Origin: Escherichia phage AV112
Direction: 5' to 3' (one strand)
DNA length: 64,000 nucleotides
Sequence record: OR352942.1
In this document: positions 4,531 through 63,800 of the stretch, piece by piece
How the letters are laid out: every line of letters begins with the position of its first letter
How positions within the stretch are numbered: position 1 is the first letter of the stretch
Made by a program: the position numbers and the translations under genes
Notes under the pieces: generated by a model
What the model was told of the DNA's origin: nothing
Databases searched by the model: none
Seen by the model: only the letters and a program-made list of their open reading frames with translations

Positions 4531-6744
4531 TTATTTGGCCGCTTCCACGGCCTTCATGAATTTAACGATTTGAGCGACTTGTTCTTTAGAAAGAGTACCA
4601 CGTCGTCCCATGTAGTCTGACACAATATGATAATTGGTTTCGAATTCAATAACCATTTTATCATCATTATCGTAAGCATTATCTTTAAGCTTATCGAAAA
4701 TTTTAGCACACAATTCTAACTTCTTATTCAGTTCTGTATTAGTAGCACCTGCGAATCGATTCCATCCCCAACGATTATTTACTGTTGAGAGTTTTGCAAA
4801 ATCTTTACTGATTTCTTTGTTTTTAGAGCTAAAATACTTACTAAGGAAGTTAAGCTCTTCATTACGAGTAATATGATTCAAATAAGGCTGTGCTCTACGA
4901 CTTGGTGATACATACTCATCATAATCCACTTTATCGATTAGCGTAATATAGTCATTAATTGATTTTTCGAACAAGCATTCTACTTCACCAAGTTTACGAA
5001 CTTTCTTAGCAATCTGTGGACGAACTACAGTGAACTCTTTAATACCTGACAAATCAGCAATACGGGTCAAGAAATTGGAGTCATAGTTCAACCAACCTTT
5101 ATCTGCGTCAAGACATTCAGCATTAGAACGATTACGAACTATAGCATAACCTTGGATTTTATCAGCTTCACTCGCTGGAATAAAGAGATCTTCTGATACC
5201 CAAACATCGTTTTCATTCTTAAAGAACCGATGAGCACTTGGGGATTTAGGACGAGGCCCATTAGAACGAGTCTTGACTTCAATCCATGGCTTAACGATTT
5301 GTAAAAGCTCTGAAGTCTTGTACATGTTAATGTTGTCGCCATCAAAGATAACTTTAAGGCGTTCCAGAAGTTTCATTGCATCTTCGTCTGTAGGGTCAAC
5401 GAATAGTACGCTTTTACCAAAACCGCGTGGAACTTTACCGGTTAATTTAACCTCGTCTTTAGACATTTCAATTGAATTAAGAGCTCGCATTAATGGAACA
5501 CGTCCCTTAACGTCGTCAATAACAATTTCAACGTTTTTAATGTTAATACCAATCAGACTGTTAATTGAAATAGTTGCAGATGAGCTACCACTTTCACGAA
5601 TACGACGAAGACGAGGGTCTTCAATGATATCGTATACGACGCCGAGATTACACCATTCAGGTCCCATTTTAAAACGTTTGTACAACTCTGAATAAGTTAG
5701 TTGTTCTTTAGAGTATTTCAGTGATTCAATATTAGACCCAGCCTTTTCCATGTATTTACGAGCAGTATAGCCAAGAGAATCAATTTCACGGAACACATGA
5801 CGCGGGTATTTACAATCAATCCATTTCTTAGAATCTTCAGCGAACAATTTAGCATCGATTTCTGCAACGCGTTTATGGATATTTGCTACTGTACGTTTAT
5901 CAAATGACAATGCTTCACGAGACGGGGCTACATCTAGTTCACCCATAGGGAATTTAATATAAGCTGTAGTGCATCGCGTCATCATCCATGTTTGTTCTTT
6001 AATAACACTTCCGATTGGATATACAATACCACCATAAACAGCCATGATATTACCACGTTCACCCCATGGAGCTTCCTTGGCTAAATAAACATCGTCGAAT
6101 TCCGGGAAGTATTTGATATCTTTAACACCACGAACTTCTGCAATATCACCGAGAGGACGCATAACATATGCAATTTCAGATGCGAACTTTTCAAAATCTT
6201 CTGGGTTAACCGGTACAACTACTTCTACACCAGTACGATCATCAGGACCCATCTTATCTACGAAGGTTGGCTTAATCTGTGGACCACTGTCATCTTGATA
6301 AATTACATAACCACGAACTTCACCGTTGTGATAAGACGTAAGGTTAAACGTATCGGTATATGCTAGTGGAGCTTTAGAGCCGAGACCGAATCCACCAATG
6401 AAATCGTTACTCGATGTTTTAGTTGAAGCAAAATATGAGTTATAGATTCCTGGCTCTTCGTCATTACCTCGAATGGTGAAATCACTCATACCAGGACCAA
6501 AGTCTCGAACTACAAAACGTGGGTCTAAACGACCTGGGGCCTGAACAATAAACTTATCAGTGCAACCATTAAGAATTTGACCATCGATACAGTTTGTGAT
6601 TAATTCACGTACACAAGCCAATTCTTTGTTTGTATAAAGGTCATTAGACAAAATCTTATAAACTTTGCTATTGCCTTGAATAGTAAATGCTGTGCTCTTA
6701 CCGCCTGAACCAATAATCGTTTCTTTAGCCGTTTCAATAATCAT
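4531..6744 (-). CDS. rIIA: rIIA protein (737 aa) with N-terminal GHKL-type ATPase fold
   Basis: GHKL-like motifs ELITNCIDG, VRDFGPGM and GGFGLGSKA; size close to T4 rIIA; synteny with rIIB and 39. Confidence 0.8.
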   Translation of the reverse strand: MIIETAKETIIGSGGKSTAFTIQGNSKVYKILSNDLYTNKELACVRELITNCIDGQILNGCTDKFIVQAPGRLDPRFVVRDFGPGMSDFTIRGNDEEPGIYNSYFASTKTSSNDFIGGFGLGSKAPLAYTDTFNLTSYHNGEVRGYVIYQDDSGPQIKPTFVDKMGPDDRTGVEVVVPVNPEDFEKFASEIAYVMRPLGDIAEVRGVKDIKYFPEFDDVYLAKEAPWGERGNIMAVYGGIVYPIGSVIKEQTWMMTRCTTAYIKFPMGELDVAPSREALSFDKRTVANIHKRVAEIDAKLFAEDSKKWIDCKYPRHVFREIDSLGYTARKYMEKAGSNIESLKYSKEQLTYSELYKRFKMGPEWCNLGVVYDIIEDPRLRRIRESGSSSATISINSLIGINIKNVEIVIDDVKGRVPLMRALNSIEMSKDEVKLTGKVPRGFGKSVLFVDPTDEDAMKLLERLKVIFDGDNINMYKTSELLQIVKPWIEVKTRSNGPRPKSPSAHRFFKNENDVWVSEDLFIPASEADKIQGYAIVRNRSNAECLDADKGWLNYDSNFLTRIADLSGIKEFTVVRPQIAKKVRKLGEVECLFEKSINDYITLIDKVDYDEYVSPSRRAQPYLNHITRNEELNFLSKYFSSKNKEISKDFAKLSTVNNRWGWNRFAGATNTELNKKLELCAKIFDKLKDNAYDNDDKMVIEFETNYHIVSDYMGRRGTLSKEQVAQIVKFMKAVEAAK

Positions 6745-11094: not shown

Positions 11095-11321
11095 TAGTAA
11101 GTTTCCTTCCAATAAGTTGTACCATTTTCAGTGATTTCACGGAAGATACCATAGATAGGCATTTCATCACCGAGTTTTTCGTAAACGTAAACCACTTCAG
11201 TGTAGCATAAAAATTCTGTCCAGTTTTTCTGTACAACAACTAAATCAGGATTAAACAGAACATCTTCAAACTCATCGATGTTTGAATCAGTAGTTACGTT
11301 TTTAATGATTTGACGTTTCAT
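11094..11321 (-). CDS. hypothetical protein (about 75 aa; start taken at MKRQ)
   Basis: The ORF-track first ATG (11366) lies inside the PeSL cassette; internal ATG at 11321 has a GAGGAG Shine-Dalgarno. Confidence 0.4.
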
Positions 11322-11962: not shown

Positions 11963-12382
11963 TTATGCAAAAGATGCTGGACAATATTTTTTGATTTGGA
12001 ACTCAGGAACTACCATGAACTGTCCAGCGAAAACGATGTTATAAAGCTTAACACCATCTTCTACCCATTGGTCCGAAATAAAACCAGCAACTTGATTCGT
12101 TGTCCATGGAGACCCGTCAGTTGCAGAAGCAATAGTAAATTCATGGTCTTTTACAACTAAAACAGACCTGCATAGTTTCCATTTGAACGCTTTTTCTTCT
12201 GATTCAATGAATTGGCTTTTAACATAACCAATGTTACCATCGGCGTCACGAACTTTAACTTCGTTACGTCCAAAAACCGGATCACTCACAGAAAGAACTT
12301 CAACCAACTTCCCGGCAACTTTAGAGCGAGAAGCAACAGATACATATACGTAATCACCTGTAGAGAGATTTACAATATTCAT
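11963..12382 (-). CDS. hypothetical protein, member A of a tandem paralogue triplet (139 aa)
   Basis: Shares VSVASRSKVAGKLVEV and FISDQWVEDGVKLYNIVF motifs with the next ORF. Confidence 0.5.
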   Translation of the reverse strand: MNIVNLSTGDYVYVSVASRSKVAGKLVEVLSVSDPVFGRNEVKVRDADGNIGYVKSQFIESEEKAFKWKLCRSVLVVKDHEFTIASATDGSPWTTNQVAGFISDQWVEDGVKLYNIVFAGQFMVVPEFQIKKYCPASFA

Positions 12383-15781: not shown

Positions 15782-16528
15782 TTAACCTTTAATCAGTTGG
15801 AATAATGATGCGCTAAGTGGTAAGCCACGTTTCAATTTTAATTTACCAATTAAACCAATCTTTTCAAAACGTTGCAGACCTTGGATAACTTTATCATATG
15901 TATCGAAAAGCGATTCAGCGTCAGTTAATTTAGTTTTAGTTTTCCAGTCAGAGCCTTTAAGAAGAACGTTGAGTTTAGTAAGTTCATGGCCTTCTGCTTG
16001 ATGTGAGCCATTAATGCGTGCTTTCAAAGCAACAATTCTAAGTTTAGATTCGTTAGATAAAGGTTGATTTTTCATCATGTTCGCCATATGCTTAACACGG
16101 TTTTCACGTTTTGCTCGGATTTTTAAAATAGTACCATAAACCTTTTTAATTTGGGCCCATTTCTTCTCGTCGAGATTAAGTTTCTCTACTTTACGGGCAG
16201 AAGGATTAGCGATACGTCTTGCAATGGCATCACGTTTCTCAATAAGTTCTTCTAATGTTAAATCAGAACGAGCCGTGTTATATTTTTTCTTAACTGGGAT
16301 AACATTACCTTTAATGTAGCCGATATCGTTATTAAAACGTTCTAAGGATAATTTCTCACCTTCAACAGAGTTATTGAAAGATTCACCTGAGTAAGCGCAG
16401 ACCTTTTGATCAAGAATGTTTTTAAGGTAATTAAAGTCTAAGTTAAAATCCTTAGAGCGTCTCTTTGCAGAAGCTCTGGTGTGGTCAAGACGACGATTGA
16501 TTTTGTTAATTTTATTATTTGATAACAT
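15782..16528 (-). CDS. srd: Srd-like protein (248 aa), basic/helical
   Basis: Size and position between dda.1 and modA as in T4; highly basic sequence; assignment from synteny. Confidence 0.5.
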   Translation of the reverse strand: MLSNNKINKINRRLDHTRASAKRRSKDFNLDFNYLKNILDQKVCAYSGESFNNSVEGEKLSLERFNNDIGYIKGNVIPVKKKYNTARSDLTLEELIEKRDAIARRIANPSARKVEKLNLDEKKWAQIKKVYGTILKIRAKRENRVKHMANMMKNQPLSNESKLRIVALKARINGSHQAEGHELTKLNVLLKGSDWKTKTKLTDAESLFDTYDKVIQGLQRFEKIGLIGKLKLKRGLPLSASLFQLIKG

Positions 16529-16606
16529 AATATTTTCCTCTGTCTTACGGACGTTAGGTCATTTAGCTGATAGGGTTATAATATCATGCCCTCAGGTAGT
16601 GTACAC
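16529..16606 (-). promoter_or_regulatory. PeSL-like early promoter cassette upstream of srd
   Basis: Minus strand TGTACA -35-like, TATTAT -10, GGA Shine-Dalgarno. Confidence 0.4.
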
Positions 16607-16616
16607 TCTTTTTTCG

Positions 16617-16647
16617 TAAAATGCTTTAATTTTTTATGTGTTATAAT
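16617..16647 (+). promoter_or_regulatory. plus-strand MotA-box middle-promoter-like sequence antisense to modA
   Basis: Plus strand aaaTGCTTTA (16618-16628) - 13 nt - TATAAT (16642-16647). Confidence 0.3.
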
Positions 16648-16680
16648 GGTTCTGAGTTCCATCCGGTTATTCCAATCCGG

Positions 16681-17289
16681 TCAGTAACCGACAATAGACA
16701 GATTCCAGATTGTATAACGTCCATCTTGAATAATAGAATCTACACGCAGTGTAGTCCCTATAGGGAGCATAAATTCACATTCGTCAGATATAAGTCTAGC
16801 ATTAGACCGTCTTGTCGCTTCAGGGAAAGCTCCATTGAACTCACAAGATGGTGCAGCCAGAATCATATTAAGCATATGTTCACGGAAGTTGAAAGCAAAT
16901 GGTGCATCTTTGATGCAGAACATATTAAATGTTCCATAAAAATTATATGAAGCGAAGTTACGTGCTACACCAAACACCGGACTAAAGCTCATTACTCTGT
17001 CAAATTTAATAATACTACCAATGCCTTTATCATCGAGTGTGGCCATAGTTTTCTTAGAGATTCCACGATACATTGTCTCAGGAACAGAAGACGTCCAATT
17101 TCTACGAACAATTGCACTTAAATCTTGTTGGATGCTGTCTGGCTTGTTTTCCATACATTGCCATAGTACACTTTGTTCAATGTCGCTGAATTGCTCATCG
17201 ATTTTGTACTGAAGCATATCTTGATAATCCGGGCATTGAGCACGTCGAACCATTTCTTCAATTTCACACTCGTTATACGGCATAAACAT
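16681..17289 (-). CDS. modA: ADP-ribosyltransferase (ModA-like), 202 aa
   Basis: ART motifs: YRG (Arg), FSPVFGVAR (STS-like), acidic motif near the C-terminus; paralogous to the next ORF; T4 synteny. Confidence 0.65.
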   Translation of the reverse strand: MFMPYNECEIEEMVRRAQCPDYQDMLQYKIDEQFSDIEQSVLWQCMENKPDSIQQDLSAIVRRNWTSSVPETMYRGISKKTMATLDDKGIGSIIKFDRVMSFSPVFGVARNFASYNFYGTFNMFCIKDAPFAFNFREHMLNMILAAPSCEFNGAFPEATRRSNARLISDECEFMLPIGTTLRVDSIIQDGRYTIWNLSIVGY

Positions 17290-17346
17290 TTAGATTTCTC
17301 CTGTGGTTGATAAAGGTATAGTATCATCATCGGAAGAGTTTGTACA
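17290..17346 (-). promoter_or_regulatory. PeSL-like early promoter cassette upstream of modA
   Basis: Minus strand TGTACA ... TACTAT, GGAGA Shine-Dalgarno. Confidence 0.4.
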
Positions 17347-17928
17347 CTAAAAATTCAACATTTTCAAATGAATGATTTTGTATAATCGAGATAAAGGGTC
17401 ATATTCTAAGTCTTCAATTTTCACAATCTCAAATCTAGAGATACCTGAGACCATGTACTCTTGTTCAGATTCAATCATATCTAGGACATCGATACGAGTT
17501 TCTTCCATAACATGCTTAGGGTTCTTTCCGGCAAGTACAATGTTAACCATGTTTTGGTAGTAATCAAAAATGAATGGAGCATTCCTGAGACTAAGAATAG
17601 TGTACGTCTGATATTCCCAGCTCCCGGAGAATTGACGAGCTGTACTGAAATCAGTTGTGAACGATGTTACTCGTCCAGGAGACCAATGACATCCAACAGA
17701 AAGAAGGGAAAGACGTTCTACTTCTTCTGGAGTTACACCGCGGTAGAGTTCTACTGGTACTGTAGAAGTCATATGCTTACGAACAAGATGGTCTAATTCA
17801 TAGTGGAAATCCGGGTCTTCCTTAGAATCAGTGCAAGCCCAGAGAATGTTTTGTTCTTGGCGGGTGAATTTGCTATCAATCAGATTTGTTAGGTATTCAC
17901 GTTCTTGAAGTTCAGATTGACATGTCAT
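17347..17928 (-). CDS. modB: ADP-ribosyltransferase (ModB-like), 193 aa
   Basis: ART motifs YRGV, SFTTDFSTARQF and EQEYMVSG; paralogue of modA. Confidence 0.65.
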   Translation of the reverse strand: MTCQSELQEREYLTNLIDSKFTRQEQNILWACTDSKEDPDFHYELDHLVRKHMTSTVPVELYRGVTPEEVERLSLLSVGCHWSPGRVTSFTTDFSTARQFSGSWEYQTYTILSLRNAPFIFDYYQNMVNIVLAGKNPKHVMEETRIDVLDMIESEQEYMVSGISRFEIVKIEDLEYDPLSRLYKIIHLKMLNF

Positions 17929-17984
17929 GATAGACCTCCATTTAAAGATAAGCCTATCATAACACGAGAGGAGGGAATGTAAAC
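17929..17984 (-). promoter_or_regulatory. early promoter cassette upstream of modB
   Basis: Minus strand GTTTAC-N17-TATGAT, GGAGG Shine-Dalgarno. Confidence 0.45.
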
Positions 17985-19472: not shown

Positions 19473-19498
19473 ACAAAAAAAGGAATCCCGAAGGATTC
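19473..19498 (-). terminator. rho-independent terminator downstream of soc
   Basis: Minus strand AGGAATCC-ttcg-GGATTCCT followed by TTTTTTTG. Confidence 0.65.
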
Positions 19499-19508
19499 CT
19501 TAAATTAT

Positions 19509-28382: not shown

Positions 28383-28399
28383 AGGCTCTTAACGAGCCC
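28383..28399 (-). terminator. terminator-like hairpin after the P-loop kinase gene
   Basis: Minus strand GGGCTC-gttaa-GAGCC followed by a T-rich run. Confidence 0.4.
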
Positions 28400-28937
28400 A
28401 TTTGATAATTTCTGTAATCAAATTATTACGTTCGCTTGCATTAAATCCTATAACTTTGTTAGCACCATCATGATTAAGTAATTGATACGTTTGGATTTTG
28501 TTATGAATTGCAAACTCTTCAAAATATGAAATGACTGTATTAAAACCGAATGAAGACAAAGTAATAAGGTCGTCTTCAAAACTTTCAGTCATTTCGTTAC
28601 GTGTTAAAATAATTGTGAACACATCATGGTTTTGGCAAAGACGAACATAATCCTGTTCATAAACGTCAAGAACCGAGTCCACATCTTGTCGAATACGTCC
28701 ATAAACCCAGTTACTAATATATCCACGGTCTAACAGATAAATCTTAGTAGGGTCTAAATAATTCAACATCGTTTCGAAACAGCCAACTTCATTTCGAGAT
28801 TTAACATCGAAACGTCCATCAACTGTTCGTTTAGGGAAATCAATCTTTACATATCTTTCACTAATTTCCATTATGTCATTAATGAAAGTTGTTTTACCAG
28901 CATTATCCGGGCCATCTACTAAAATAATTTTAGCCAT
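28389..28937 (-). CDS. P-loop nucleoside/nucleotide kinase (thymidylate-kinase-like), 182 aa
   Basis: Walker A GPDNAGKTT near the N-terminus and LLDRGYIS (DRY-like) motif. Confidence 0.5.
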   Translation of the reverse strand: MAKIILVDGPDNAGKTTFINDIMEISERYVKIDFPKRTVDGRFDVKSRNEVGCFETMLNYLDPTKIYLLDRGYISNWVYGRIRQDVDSVLDVYEQDYVRLCQNHDVFTIILTRNEMTESFEDDLITLSSFGFNTVISYFEEFAIHNKIQTYQLLNHDGANKVIGFNASERNNLITEIIKWAR

Positions 28938-28938
28938 T

Positions 28939-29838
28939 TTATTCCTCGATTACGACATCTTCATATTTAGGTATATTATACGGTGAAGAAATTAAAGCAT
29001 TAAAGTAGATGAACTCACCAAGACCTGGATGGAATACTTCTTCAGGATTTTCGAAATATTGAATCTTCGGTCTTCCTTTAAGAATTTGATAGTACTCAGT
29101 TTTAGTTGGTTTAAAAATTCGAATCAGTGCTTCTTCAGGATACTTATTTCTGTCGAAGCTACTATTTGGATCGGTTATATAAAGCGGTTGACCTAATTGA
29201 ATTGCACATTCAACCACTTGTTCAAAACGATAACACGGGTCACTAATTCGAAATGGATGAAAAATACCATCTAGATGAATAGGAGCCAAATCACCTACAA
29301 GACGCTGCATGATGGAAGGACGTATAACTTTCTGGGTTACGATAATCTTATTACCATCTGCACCTGCGTTAACCAGCACTTCTTTTTGACGTTCATTCAA
29401 CACAGTAGTTTGAAGTGAACGATTAACCGACAACATGTCGGTTTTTAAGAATTCGTCAATGTAAAAACGTGGTTTATTAGGGTCTGCAGTGATATTGAAA
29501 TTGAATTCTACATCAAAAGCGCCGTCATATCCAGTGATATCTGTGATTAGAAAATCACAATCATAATAAGCAATTAATGAATCAACCACAAATTCATTTT
29601 CAGACCAGAAATATTTACGAGTGTTATACGCGTTATCTTTATACCATAATGGAACAAACTTAAATTCTGGGAAAAGACGTTCGCATTCTTTAATATCAGA
29701 TGCATTACGTGGATATGTAATCACATCACCCGGATTAGCACGGTGCAAATGAAGTTGGAAGTTGCCATCCTTAAGGATAGCATACTGTCCAGTTTCATAA
29801 GACCGCATACTCAAGATAGGTACGCGGAAAATAGCCAT
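28939..29838 (-). CDS. hypothetical protein (299 aa) occupying the T4 beta-glucosyltransferase position
   Basis: ORF between uvsX and 42; no similarity to T4 beta-gt that I can recognise. Confidence 0.45.
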   Translation of the reverse strand: MAIFRVPILSMRSYETGQYAILKDGNFQLHLHRANPGDVITYPRNASDIKECERLFPEFKFVPLWYKDNAYNTRKYFWSENEFVVDSLIAYYDCDFLITDITGYDGAFDVEFNFNITADPNKPRFYIDEFLKTDMLSVNRSLQTTVLNERQKEVLVNAGADGNKIIVTQKVIRPSIMQRLVGDLAPIHLDGIFHPFRISDPCYRFEQVVECAIQLGQPLYITDPNSSFDRNKYPEEALIRIFKPTKTEYYQILKGRPKIQYFENPEEVFHPGLGEFIYFNALISSPYNIPKYEDVVIEE

Positions 29839-47269: not shown

Positions 47270-47482
47270 TTATCCGAACTTTTTAGCGCCTTTCCAGCCT
47301 TCGTACATAACTGCACAAGTCAGTAATACAGCGTGCTGGCATTCTTTGTATTTGTAAATCCAGAACCAGCGTAAAAAGTCTTCATCCTCAACACCGTTGA
47401 GTTTCATGTTGGCAAAGAATTCGGCACGTTCTTCACGAAGTTGCCATGACACAATATTTTCAGGATTCATTTTGTGTTCCAA
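47270..47482 (-). CDS. hypothetical protein (70 aa)
   Basis: ORF-track ORF. Confidence 0.35.
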   Translation of the reverse strand: MEHKMNPENIVSWQLREERAEFFANMKLNGVEDEDFLRWFWIYKYKECQHAVLLTCAVMYEGWKGAKKFG

Positions 47483-47601
47483 GCCCCGTTTTCGTCGATG
47501 AACTTAATCCAGTCATTTACAGACCATTTAGTTGTATCACCCTTTAGATTAACATTTAAAGTATATAATCCCTGCTTAAAAAGCATTCGTTTGATATTCA
47601 T
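47467..47601 (-). CDS. hypothetical small protein (about 44 aa)
   Basis: Internal ATG with GAGGAA Shine-Dalgarno just after the stop of the upstream ORF. Confidence 0.3.
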   Translation of the reverse strand: MNIKRMLFKQGLYTLNVNLKGDTTKWSVNDWIKFIDENGAWNTK

Positions 47602-47608
47602 AATTTCC

Positions 47609-47902
47609 TCAACTGTAACGATAACATTCGTTAGCTTTACGTTTGGCTTCAGTATGAGAAGTATTATAATCATAATCTTCTTTACTGTAAACATCTTTTT
47701 TCAACTTACGAACTTCTTTGCGGAGTTGTCGATTCATTTCGTTCTTGACTTCAGAATCAACGCCTTTCATACGTTTCCATTTATCCGAGCGGAAAATGTT
47801 TTCAACCATGTCTTTGTGGCTAACACCGTCAGGAGCTTTACGTTTACCAAAATAGTCGTAATCACGAACTTTCAAATCTTTACGACGATACGTTTTACCC
47901 AT
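47609..47902 (-). CDS. hypothetical basic protein (about 97 aa; start at MGKTYRR)
   Basis: GAGGT Shine-Dalgarno before the ATG at 47902; Lys/Arg-rich. Confidence 0.4.
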   Translation of the reverse strand: MGKTYRRKDLKVRDYDYFGKRKAPDGVSHKDMVENIFRSDKWKRMKGVDSEVKNEMNRQLRKEVRKLKKDVYSKEDYDYNTSHTEAKRKANECYRYS

Positions 47903-47909
47903 AAGTACC

Positions 47910-48158
47910 TCAGAGGTTGATTGATACAATGCGTTTGATAAAATTCACTTCACTTACTGAAAGGTCTTTAAGACCGATTGATTCTAAACGCTGAGTAAGC
48001 GTCAACATCGGGATATAGTCCCAATGTGTTTTAGACGTTTGATAAGTACGGGCGCCATTAGCAATTTCAACGTTCAAATCAGAAATGGTAATGAATACCA
48101 GACGTTCGTTGTTTACATTAAGAGTTAGAACAACTTTCTTCGAATTCAGACTAATCAT
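47910..48158 (-). CDS. hypothetical protein (about 82 aa; start at MISLNSKK)
   Basis: GAGGAA Shine-Dalgarno before the ATG at 48158; GTTTAC-N17-TAAGAT promoter upstream (48159-48216). Confidence 0.4.
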   Translation of the reverse strand: MISLNSKKVVLTLNVNNERLVFITISDLNVEIANGARTYQTSKTHWDYIPMLTLTQRLESIGLKDLSVSEVNFIKRIVSINL

Positions 48159-60657: not shown

Positions 60658-61647
60658 TTATTTATAGTAAGAATTATGATTTTCGAGATAGACTTGTTCA
60701 AGGAAGTCATCCCAGAAACTCATATCTACTTTTTGTTGCATACCGTTCTTGGCAGCTTGTTCTGATGCATGTTCAACTTGGTCAACGATATCTTCTAGGA
60801 ATTCTTGTACAGTTTTAAACGTATGTTTACCAAGCTTAACATCGAGAATAAATGGAGCATCCTGAAGTGGGTAAACCAGGTCGCCGGTTTTATAAATTTC
60901 TAATAGTTGAAGTCCACCACGACATGCATGACTCAATGCTTTCCAGTCAATACCTTCGTTAGCTTCTGCCTTACGAGCACGTTCACCATAGTTCTCTTCC
61001 AGTTTAACCAGGATGGCATTGAACTCTTTATTGGTTAACGTGTCTTGGAATTTACGGTCTAACAGATTATAGAATGTTTGCTTACCTGTTTTCTCGTTTT
61101 CAGTTTCAACCCACGAAGCAAATTCACCTACAGGCAGAACATTCTTCATATGTGATAAACGAATTACTGCACCATTATCAAAGTATTGTCCCCATTCATT
61201 AGAACGTTTAAGGGCTTGACGAAGAACAGCCAGTCGAGAACCCTTGACACCGTATTTAGAAGCTTGTTTACGGACATACCCTAAATAAGATTTCATGTTA
61301 GTGGTATAGAAACGAGACCTGTTATCTTGAATATACTTCCATACATCAGGCAAATCGGATTTAACTACTAAACTTGGTGGAGTGTGAAGCATATCTAATG
61401 CGACGGTTTCGCCATCTGCAGCTAGTTTAAAGAAATATTTGAGACTATACAACTCATGGTCCACGTCGTCTTTTGTGTTCTTAGAAGATGTGTTATTTGT
61501 GTTCTTGCTCATATGTTCTTTAACGTTACCGGTCAAGATATCACGAGCATGAGGGACATAAATTTCTTTAAAATCGACGTCAGATTCAGGAGTAGACGTT
61601 CCATAAAGGTGGCTACCAAAGTAGCCTTTCATAATTGTTTTCATCAT
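60658..61647 (-). CDS. nucleotidyltransferase-fold (pol-beta superfamily, MNT-like) protein, 329 aa
   Basis: N-terminal GSHLYGTSTPESDVD matches the G-S-x(9-13)-D-x-D NTase motif. Confidence 0.45.
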   Translation of the reverse strand: MMKTIMKGYFGSHLYGTSTPESDVDFKEIYVPHARDILTGNVKEHMSKNTNNTSSKNTKDDVDHELYSLKYFFKLAADGETVALDMLHTPPSLVVKSDLPDVWKYIQDNRSRFYTTNMKSYLGYVRKQASKYGVKGSRLAVLRQALKRSNEWGQYFDNGAVIRLSHMKNVLPVGEFASWVETENEKTGKQTFYNLLDRKFQDTLTNKEFNAILVKLEENYGERARKAEANEGIDWKALSHACRGGLQLLEIYKTGDLVYPLQDAPFILDVKLGKHTFKTVQEFLEDIVDQVEHASEQAAKNGMQQKVDMSFWDDFLEQVYLENHNSYYK

Positions 61648-62945: not shown

Positions 62946-63003
62946 TTTGTTCTCCATTTGTTTTGGTAGGATTACTATATCATAGTCCTACCAAGACGTA
63001 AAC
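62946..63003 (-). promoter_or_regulatory. PeSL-like early promoter/stem-loop cassette
   Basis: Minus strand GTTTAC-N18-TATAGT; inverted repeat GGTAGGA/TCCTACC; GGAG Shine-Dalgarno. Confidence 0.5.
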
Positions 63004-63236
63004 TACCGATTGTGTTTTAAATGTTGATAAAGTTCTTCAACTTGTTTAGGGTCCAAAACAATTAAGTCATTTTCTTGGCGAAGATAAATCCATCCCTTAT
63101 CCCCAGGGCCATTTTTACAAAACATCACCACCGTATCATCATCTTCAGCGCTTTCAGGTAAAAGTTCAAGTACACCGTCTTCAGATTTTCCAGTATAATC
63201 GTAAAGCATAATGTCCTCACATAATCTCGTTAACAT
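63003..63236 (-). CDS. hypothetical acidic protein (77 aa)
   Basis: ORF-track ORF. Confidence 0.4.
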   Translation of the reverse strand: MLTRLCEDIMLYDYTGKSEDGVLELLPESAEDDDTVVMFCKNGPGDKGWIYLRQENDLIVLDPKQVEELYQHLKHNR

Positions 63237-63396
63237 ACATTTGTAATTCGGTGTGGGCTTCGGCCATCTTTTTCATAGCTTTGTTAATGTCGATGTCTCC
63301 ATCTTCGCATCCATGAGCATTTTCCCAATCAGATACCGCATTAGCGTACTCTTCAATCAAAAACATTAACTTAGAAATTTTTTCTTTACGTGTCAT
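63217..63396 (-). CDS. hypothetical protein (about 59 aa; start at MTRKEK)
   Basis: ORF-track first ATG lies in the PeSL cassette; GGAG Shine-Dalgarno before the internal ATG. Confidence 0.35.
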   Translation of the reverse strand: MTRKEKISKLMFLIEEYANAVSDWENAHGCEDGDIDINKAMKKMAEAHTELQMYVNEIM

Positions 63397-63452
63397 AACG
63401 TTCTCCTCTAGTAAGTAAAGACTACTATAACACAACCTGAGGAGAAGTAAAC
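63397..63452 (-). promoter_or_regulatory. PeSL-like early promoter cassette
   Basis: Minus strand GTTTAC-N17-TATAGT; inverted repeat TCTCCTC/GAGGAGA. Confidence 0.5.
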
Positions 63453-63457
63453 TGCTA

Positions 63458-63492
63458 AACGCAAAAAAGCCCCAACCATAAGGAAGGGGCTA
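63458..63492 (-). terminator. rho-independent terminator-like hairpin
   Basis: Minus strand AGCCCC...GGGGCT followed by TTTTTTG. Confidence 0.45.
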
Positions 63493-63497
63493 GTAAA

Positions 63498-63800
63498 TTA
63501 GATAGATGTAGGCTCTAATTTTATTTTCATGAACTCGGCAAATTGTCTGGCAGTTTTTATGCCTTGTTCATGACATTCAAATGCATCATCACAGGGGCTA
63601 TTTTTGTAATGCTTTGCCATATACTTATAGAATTTTTCAGAATTCTCGACATTTTGAATTTCAAACAAAGTATATACGTTTTTAATCCCTGATTCCATAA
63701 AGTTATCAAAATATGGGTCGGTATACGCAGTACCAACGTTAGGAGTTGTTGCTGCAAAAAACCCCAGCATCGCCATGACAGCTATCGCTCTTAAGGCCAT
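63498..63800 (-). CDS. secreted protein with signal peptide (100 aa)
   Basis: MALRAIAVMAMLGFFAATT signal peptide; strong AGGAGG Shine-Dalgarno. Confidence 0.45.
   Translation of the reverse strand: MALRAIAVMAMLGFFAATTPNVGTAYTDPYFDNFMESGIKNVYTLFEIQNVENSEKFYKYMAKHYKNSPCDDAFECHEQGIKTARQFAEFMKIKLEPTSI

Follow-up and report, generated by a model that had tools for sequence, protein, structure and literature searches.

The window, by which we mean the whole 64-kb stretch of phage DNA that was analysed, derives from an RB69-like Mosigvirus; in a comparison of 1.7 kb it shows 100% identity to Escherichia phage AV113 and 97.8% identity to RB69. Among its early genes, modA and srd lie on the minus strand and are separated by a gap of 152 nt. 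Inside this gap, positions 16619-16647 of the plus strand, read directly, give aaaTGCTTTA, a 13-nt spacer and TATAAT, which is the layout of a T4-type middle promoter. The published consensus for this class is (a/t)(a/t)(a/t)TGCTTtA situated 12 +/- 1 bp from TAtaaT, with an optional TGn and no -35 element (PMC2988021). The site fits this consensus, so that the middle-promoter architecture assigned to it in a preliminary description of the DNA is borne out; the gene names modA and modB and the direction of the predicted transcript given there are likewise correct according to the RB69 annotation. No -35 element is present, the hexamers 16-18 nt upstream of the -10 being unlike TTGACA, and a sigma70 scan calls no plus-strand promoter at 16619-16647. 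The modA stop codon is 33 nt from the TATAAT. The predicted transcription start, placed from the usual 7-nt distance after the -10, lies 83 bp from that of the srd early promoter. The upstream (UP-element) zone of this early promoter, at -40 to -60, is overlapped by the MotA box both in the window and in T4. The coordinates are collected in Table 1.

Table 1. Coordinates of the antisense element and of the features that surround it in the window
Feature	Position	Strand	Remarks
MotA box aaaTGCTTTA	16619-16628	+	Centred at about -30 of the antisense promoter; aaa 16619-16621, TGCTTTA 16622-16628
Spacer	16629-16641	+	13 nt; last three bases TGT, the TGn of the extended -10
Extended -10, TGt + TATAAT	16639-16647	+	TATAAT at 16642-16647
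Conserved start region GGTTCTGAG	16648-16656	+	Predicted transcription start 16654 or 16655
Predicted non-coding antisense transcript	16654-17983	+	Would run through modA and modB as far as the modB early promoter
srd	15782-16528	-	Gene downstream of the intergenic region
srd leader motif CGTCCGTAAGA	16543-16553	-	Conserved neighbouring feature
Early-type srd promoter, TGTACA-16-TATTAT with TG	16578-16605	-	Back to back with the antisense promoter
modA, RNA polymerase alpha ADP-ribosyltransferase	16681-17289	-	97.8% identity to RB69 DNA annotated modA
modB	17347-17928	-	Upstream gene in the same early operon as modA; RB69 annotation
Early-type mod operon promoter, TTTACA-16-TATGAT with TG	17956-17983	-	Convergent with the antisense promoter

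The T4 counterpart of the mod early promoter is TTTACT-17-TATGAT, at 4186-4158 of the T4 locus (L001). Every non-shadow open reading frame (ORF) of at least 110 aa is encoded on the minus strand, and the site therefore opposes all of its neighbours, as had been claimed for it. By the same measure (ORFs of at least 110 aa, shadows set aside) the 64-kb window holds no real plus-strand gene anywhere, and a plus-strand gene served by the promoter is ruled out. The RNA that would be made is equally featureless: in nine clades, the first 400 nt of the predicted antisense RNA contain no ORF of 25 aa or more with an SD sequence before it, a comparison with Rfam gives nothing above noise, the fold z-scores (-2.0 in the window, -0.6 in T4) are unremarkable, and no fold is shared between the window and T4 antisense RNAs. 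A known or structured RNA is ruled out by the Rfam and folding results. Because there is no gene, ORF, Rfam match or shared fold, the product is predicted to be an unstructured RNA fully complementary to mod mRNA. No convincing plus-strand intrinsic terminator for this RNA was found in the window or in T4. The first strong structure ahead of a transcript from 16654 is a hairpin at 19480-19501, whose perfect 9-bp GC-rich stem is readable on both strands and whose T-run is on the minus strand only; its T4 equivalent, at 6304-6325 of the T4 locus, lies between soc and mrh.2.

The preliminary description had left the site as either an antisense promoter or a chance match, and only the first of these alternatives stands. 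The strict pattern TGCTTTA-N11-13-TATAAT occurs twice in the 64 kb, against 0.03 expected, and none of 100 shuffles reaches two. A loose pattern, TGCTTNA-N11-13-TANNNT, gives 16 matches against 3.7 expected; ten of these are on the minus strand, and the element at 16619-16647 is the only plus-strand one having a canonical -10. Chance is ruled out by the shuffle tests together with conservation in at least 12 clades, since the same element, in the same orientation and place, recurs in clades whose intergenic sequence is otherwise unalignable. The other strict match in the window, TGCTTTA-12-TATAAT at 28975-28999 on the minus strand, is correctly oriented upstream of a 182-aa gene (28389-28937). 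There is also a second plus-strand site, GCTTCAG-N12-TATAAT at 47646-47670, which lies within small minus-strand ORFs (47467-47694 and 47609-47929); a 148-aa plus-strand ORF that overlaps it (47474-47920) has no Pfam match and is a shadow of those small ORFs.

A search of related phages for the same element, which had been proposed as a check on the first description, finds the motif kept in at least 12 clades, T4 included. The main sample consisted of 49 IMG/VR loci recruited through the Srd protein, independently of the motif. Exactly one opposite-strand (T/C)GCTTnn-N11-13-TATAAT is present in the mod-srd gap of 40 of the 49, and in the motif-positive loci of this sample the -10 sits 3-46 nt past the mod stop (115 nt in CC31). 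In T4 the element reads aaaaTGCTTTA-12-TATAAT, on the same strand and in the same gap (AF158101, 11866-11890), the rest of which has diverged. It is found as well in JS98-like and VR26-like phages, CC31 (Karamvirus), JD18 (Jiaodavirus) and KM16 (Moonvirus), and is absent from the mod-srd locus of MIZ3 (Krischvirus). In a second sample, anchored on the srd leader motif and hence outside the element, all 53 related sequences carry it; one unrelated match was left out, and a metagenome scan contributed nine informative loci.

Polymorphism within four genera is confined to sequence outside the element: it affects 0 of 52 box and -10 positions and 60 of the 473 remaining intergenic positions (Fisher p = 0.0013). 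All clades have a spacer of 12 or 13 nt, and about half of the clade representatives have TGn. TATAAT is perfect in 16 of 16 representatives, a count to be read in the knowledge that the search pattern demanded TATAAT. Conservation extends beyond that pattern, with a G usually preceding TATAAT and the bases G-n-n-T-(C/T)-n-A-n-G following it, at up to 2 bits; past about +9 the clade comparison finds none. As judged from these alignments, the conservation footprint of the element is promoter-shaped.

The leader motif used as the second anchor, CGTCCGTAAGA, is an 11-nt stretch that is invariant in T4, Mosigvirus, JS98-like and VR26-like phages and JD18, within a leader that is otherwise variable. 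It occurs in T4 at about 2800-2812 of the T4 locus, serves in JD18 (L029) as the spacer of the antisense promoter, and has suffered a 6-nt deletion in some T4-like strains (sb2, L039).

The genomes were also examined for MotA, the activator of middle promoters. Neither motA nor asiA is inside the 64-kb window; in AV113, motA (62957-63589) and the anti-sigma gene asiA (60808-61080) are both just left of it. For 35 of the 40 motif-positive loci, MotA was detected in the contig or genome that carries the locus, and the five that remain are VR26-type loci or incomplete contigs. In VR26-type loci (L012-L014, L033, L034 and L041) the MotA box is CGCTTTT instead of TGCTTTA. Given this altered box and the finding that the MotA of GenBank relatives of VR26 (DK-13, UPEC01) is only about 33% identical to that of T4, box and activator may have co-evolved in this lineage. 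Krischvirus-like genomes and RB43/RB16 have neither a detectable MotA nor the motif, and RB49 and RB43 were described earlier as lacking motA (Nolan et al. 2006, PMC1524935); in the Krischvirus-like phages mod still adjoins srd despite the absence of the motif. The exceptions are three MotA-positive loci without the element, two PS2-like (L072, L075) and one from Erwinia phage Cronus (L073). Their mod-srd gap is 33 or -1 nt, the genes nearly or actually overlapping, and no antisense middle promoter occurs in the 3.2-3.8 kb around the locus. As mod lies next to srd in these three without the element, it appears to be dispensable in some lineages.

The place of the element behind the mod stop is constant across clades, and its relation to the srd early promoter varies. 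In T4, the window, VR26, JS98-like phages, L058, L064 and PM2, the two promoters stand back to back, and 67-84 bp separate their predicted starts. In JD18 they are convergent, with predicted starts 31 bp apart. In CC31 (L048), STML-198 (L053), Moon (L067), CHI14 (L059) and EcS1 (L050) the element is inside the srd leader and faces the early promoter, and the offsets between the two predicted starts, positioned from consensus spacing only, are 0, 0, 0, -1 and -4 for CC31, STML-198, Moon, CHI14 and EcS1, respectively. Because the predicted starts share one base pair in CC31-type pairs, this arrangement suggests open complexes that would be mutually exclusive. In L051, L052 and L068, finally, a 63-aa ORF lies between the element and srd; the element is still 28 nt from the mod stop, and srd has its own early promoter 274 bp away. 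The start codon of the inserted ORF (62-63 aa, beginning MHKFLIMLWYTIDGEHYH; about 1255-1447 in L051, present also in L052 and L068) is positioned with respect to the MotA box just as the srd start is in CC31-type phages.

Since the position behind mod is constant and the relation to srd is not, we take mod, and not srd, to be the conserved partner of the element. The basis for this preference is limited, consisting of one clade with an insertion and the variable geometry, for mod and srd adjoin almost everywhere: tblastn places mod homologues almost only at the srd-adjacent position and finds no mod-without-srd case beyond L051, L052 and L068.

A selectively conserved element, tied to lineages with MotA and to the 3' end of mod, thus points backwards into the mod operon and has no gene downstream of it. 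Judged by its conservation, it is very probably a real control element. From these features we infer initiation at the site, dependence on MotA and a consequence for mod expression, and we give about an even chance to the reading in which the site is a genuine MotA/AsiA-dependent middle promoter, aimed back into modB-modA, that shuts the operon off in the middle period. The mod early promoter (17983-17956, minus strand) does face the element (16619-16647, plus strand), and modB and modA lie between the two. During the early phase, modB-modA would be read by sigma70 polymerase from the promoter near 17983, and srd from an early promoter of its own. As AsiA and MotA build up, polymerase would be recruited to the box at 16619-16628 and the TGn/-10 at 16639-16647, would initiate near 16654 and would transcribe the plus strand through modA and modB into a non-coding RNA. 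Polymerases from the mod early promoter would be met head-on, and the fully complementary RNA could pair with mod mRNA; that antisense transcription lowers mod expression in either of these ways is purely conjectural. The outcome would be that a toxic ADP-ribosyltransferase operon, whose enzymes would be needed only briefly, is off in the middle period. As a secondary effect, the site might compete with the srd early promoter, because the MotA box occupies the UP-element zone of the latter. Some MotA-independent firing is also conceivable, as the window and T4 copies have TGn and a perfect -10.

In a more specific form of this proposal, which we regard as tentative, the site would be a dedicated MotA-triggered device for mod shut-off, gene-less and producing antisense RNA only, which in CC31, Moon, STML-198 and CHI14 would have fused with the early promoter of srd to give a two-state promoter with a shared start. 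The early sigma70 form would read rightwards into srd and the MotA/AsiA form leftwards into mod. Several facts about T4 give such a device a context: ModA is highly toxic to Escherichia coli, the mechanism of T4 early-gene shut-off is described as unknown, and deletion of modA or asiA leaves that shut-off intact (PMC2988021).

The site is not without a trace in the existing record. The T4 copy, with a predicted start at about 11897 on the plus strand, has no counterpart among the 58 experimentally identified T4 middle promoters, in which the neighbouring entries are Pdda.1 at 11138 and P56/69 at 16813; the site may have escaped assay altogether, or an assay may have shown it to be silent. In RB69, positions 12090-12115 read TGCTTTA-13-TATAAT, orthologous to the site in the window, and lie inside Pm:12081, which Nolan et al. 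2006 (PMC1524935, Additional file 4) give as RB69 12081-12122, plus strand, score 7.9, '1 bp ins'. Pm:12081 is one of 32 RB69 middle promoters predicted with a hidden Markov model (HMM) and one of four on the plus strand (PMC1524935). It is a line of HMM output: the paper is silent on its orientation, conservation and role, and the word 'antisense' is absent. The T4, RB69 and old M30001 records annotate no promoter feature at the site. The literature covered, which stops short of the primary T4 promoter papers and the T4 dRNA-seq start table, describes no MotA-dependent antisense promoter and no modA antisense RNA. The T4 dRNA-seq preprint (bioRxiv 10.1101/2024.04.04.588121) reports 150 T4 start sites, of which 22 are antisense, and its modA-modB assay primers target sense RNA. 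Antisense transcription of T4 gene 32 (Belin et al. 1987, as cited in PMC2988021) provides, so far as the citing text describes it, a precedent in the T4 prereplicative region, albeit at a different locus.

In kind, the element is an ordinary middle promoter. It resembles the mapped T4 examples (58 in number, PuvsX and PrIIB2 among them) in its box, spacing, TGn, lack of a -35 and phage-encoded MotA/AsiA; unlike them, it opposes the direction of early and middle transcription and has no gene downstream. The lambda promoters PaQ and PRE are cII-dependent antisense promoters that read back through Q and cro, respectively, and lower their expression. They constitute the closest functional analogy, in that an activator made earlier drives a promoter backwards through a gene expressed earlier, yet their activator and architecture are unrelated and they serve the lysis-lysogeny decision, whereas the effect of the mod site is only proposed.

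The main rival to mod shut-off is a local effect on srd. Here the promoter would again be real, but the MotA/AsiA-polymerase bound to it would block the srd early promoter, read-through from modA to srd, or both, and the antisense RNA would be a by-product. The CC31, STML-198, Moon, CHI14 and EcS1 arrangement, in which near-identical predicted starts within the srd leader would make the open complexes exclude each other, agrees with this account, as does the overlap, in the window and T4, of the MotA box with positions -40 to -60 of the srd early promoter. As the sole function of the element, however, we consider it unlikely. In L051, L052 and L068, where the srd early promoter is 274 bp off, the element stays with mod; in the seven clades with promoters back to back at 67-84 bp, occlusion would be weak; and no geometry is conserved relative to srd, unlike the position behind mod. 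The local effect on srd may well coexist with mod shut-off.

Middle promoters can also have an untranslated transcript as their functional product, and the site might prime replication or recombination through an R-loop, as an origin or hot spot like T4 oriF (uvsY) and oriG (34), possibly contributing to oriA. Each of those origins comprises a MotA-dependent middle promoter and a downstream unwinding element (PMC3016281), and a nearby MotA promoter is believed to serve oriA (PMC3016281). The site in the window has the middle promoter, as read from sequence, but neither an unwinding element nor coincidence with a mapped origin, and it is several kb from oriA. Its first 50 nt downstream are only 54% A+T, which is the 6th percentile of the window and leaves no room for an unwinding element; the first 100 nt are 59% A+T (17th percentile), and in T4 the downstream A+T content is 72% against 68% locally. 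Moreover, the place assigned to oriA, at gene 69 and near soc, is some 3.7 kb away from the 3' end of modA in M30001; P56/69, its mapped MotA promoter, has its start at 16813, at a distance of about 4.9 kb from the T4 site, and nothing downstream of the element is conserved beyond about +9. A role as an R-loop primer is therefore improbable.

It could be argued, alternatively, that the sequence is promoter-like and silent, or a relic, one that in vivo binds MotA or polymerase poorly if at all and has no selected function, with overrunning by sense transcription as a possible cause of the silence. The omission of the T4 site from the 58 mapped middle promoters, the low score (7.9) in the RB69 HMM scan and the inactivity in vivo of certain consensus-like T4 sites (PMC2988021) could all be read in this way. 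Neutral sequence, however, would not show the retention seen here, in at least 12 clades with unalignable flanks, with zero polymorphism in the motif, TATAAT perfect throughout and the element absent where MotA is absent, and a silent relic is accordingly very improbable. The conserved bases might, lastly, work in the sense direction, giving mod-srd mRNA a signal for processing or termination or a binding site for a protein, and only mimic a promoter on the other strand. This is extremely improbable. Read-through mod-srd RNA does contain the block in every clade, as does the srd leader in some, but two short invariant blocks around 12-13 unconserved nt indicate bipartite DNA recognition and not RNA structure, no hairpin or T-run is found at the element, the two blocks are identical to the MotA-box and -10 consensus, and the element tracks the presence of MotA.

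What is new, then, is a gene-less middle promoter that lies antisense to the mod operon, is kept in at least 12 clades and is unlisted in T4, where the catalogue of middle promoters, named by the genes that they serve, missed a perfect-consensus site. Were transcription from it absent, the depth of its conservation would still demand another explanation. A conserved, activator-dependent promoter aimed into a toxic early operon amounts to a specific and easily testable mechanism for the shut-off of the mod operon at least, and the face-to-face early and middle pairs in related genera would be a compact natural switch between promoters in time. If the proposal of a dedicated shut-off device is true, it would supply a mechanism for part of the unexplained shut-off of T4 early genes.
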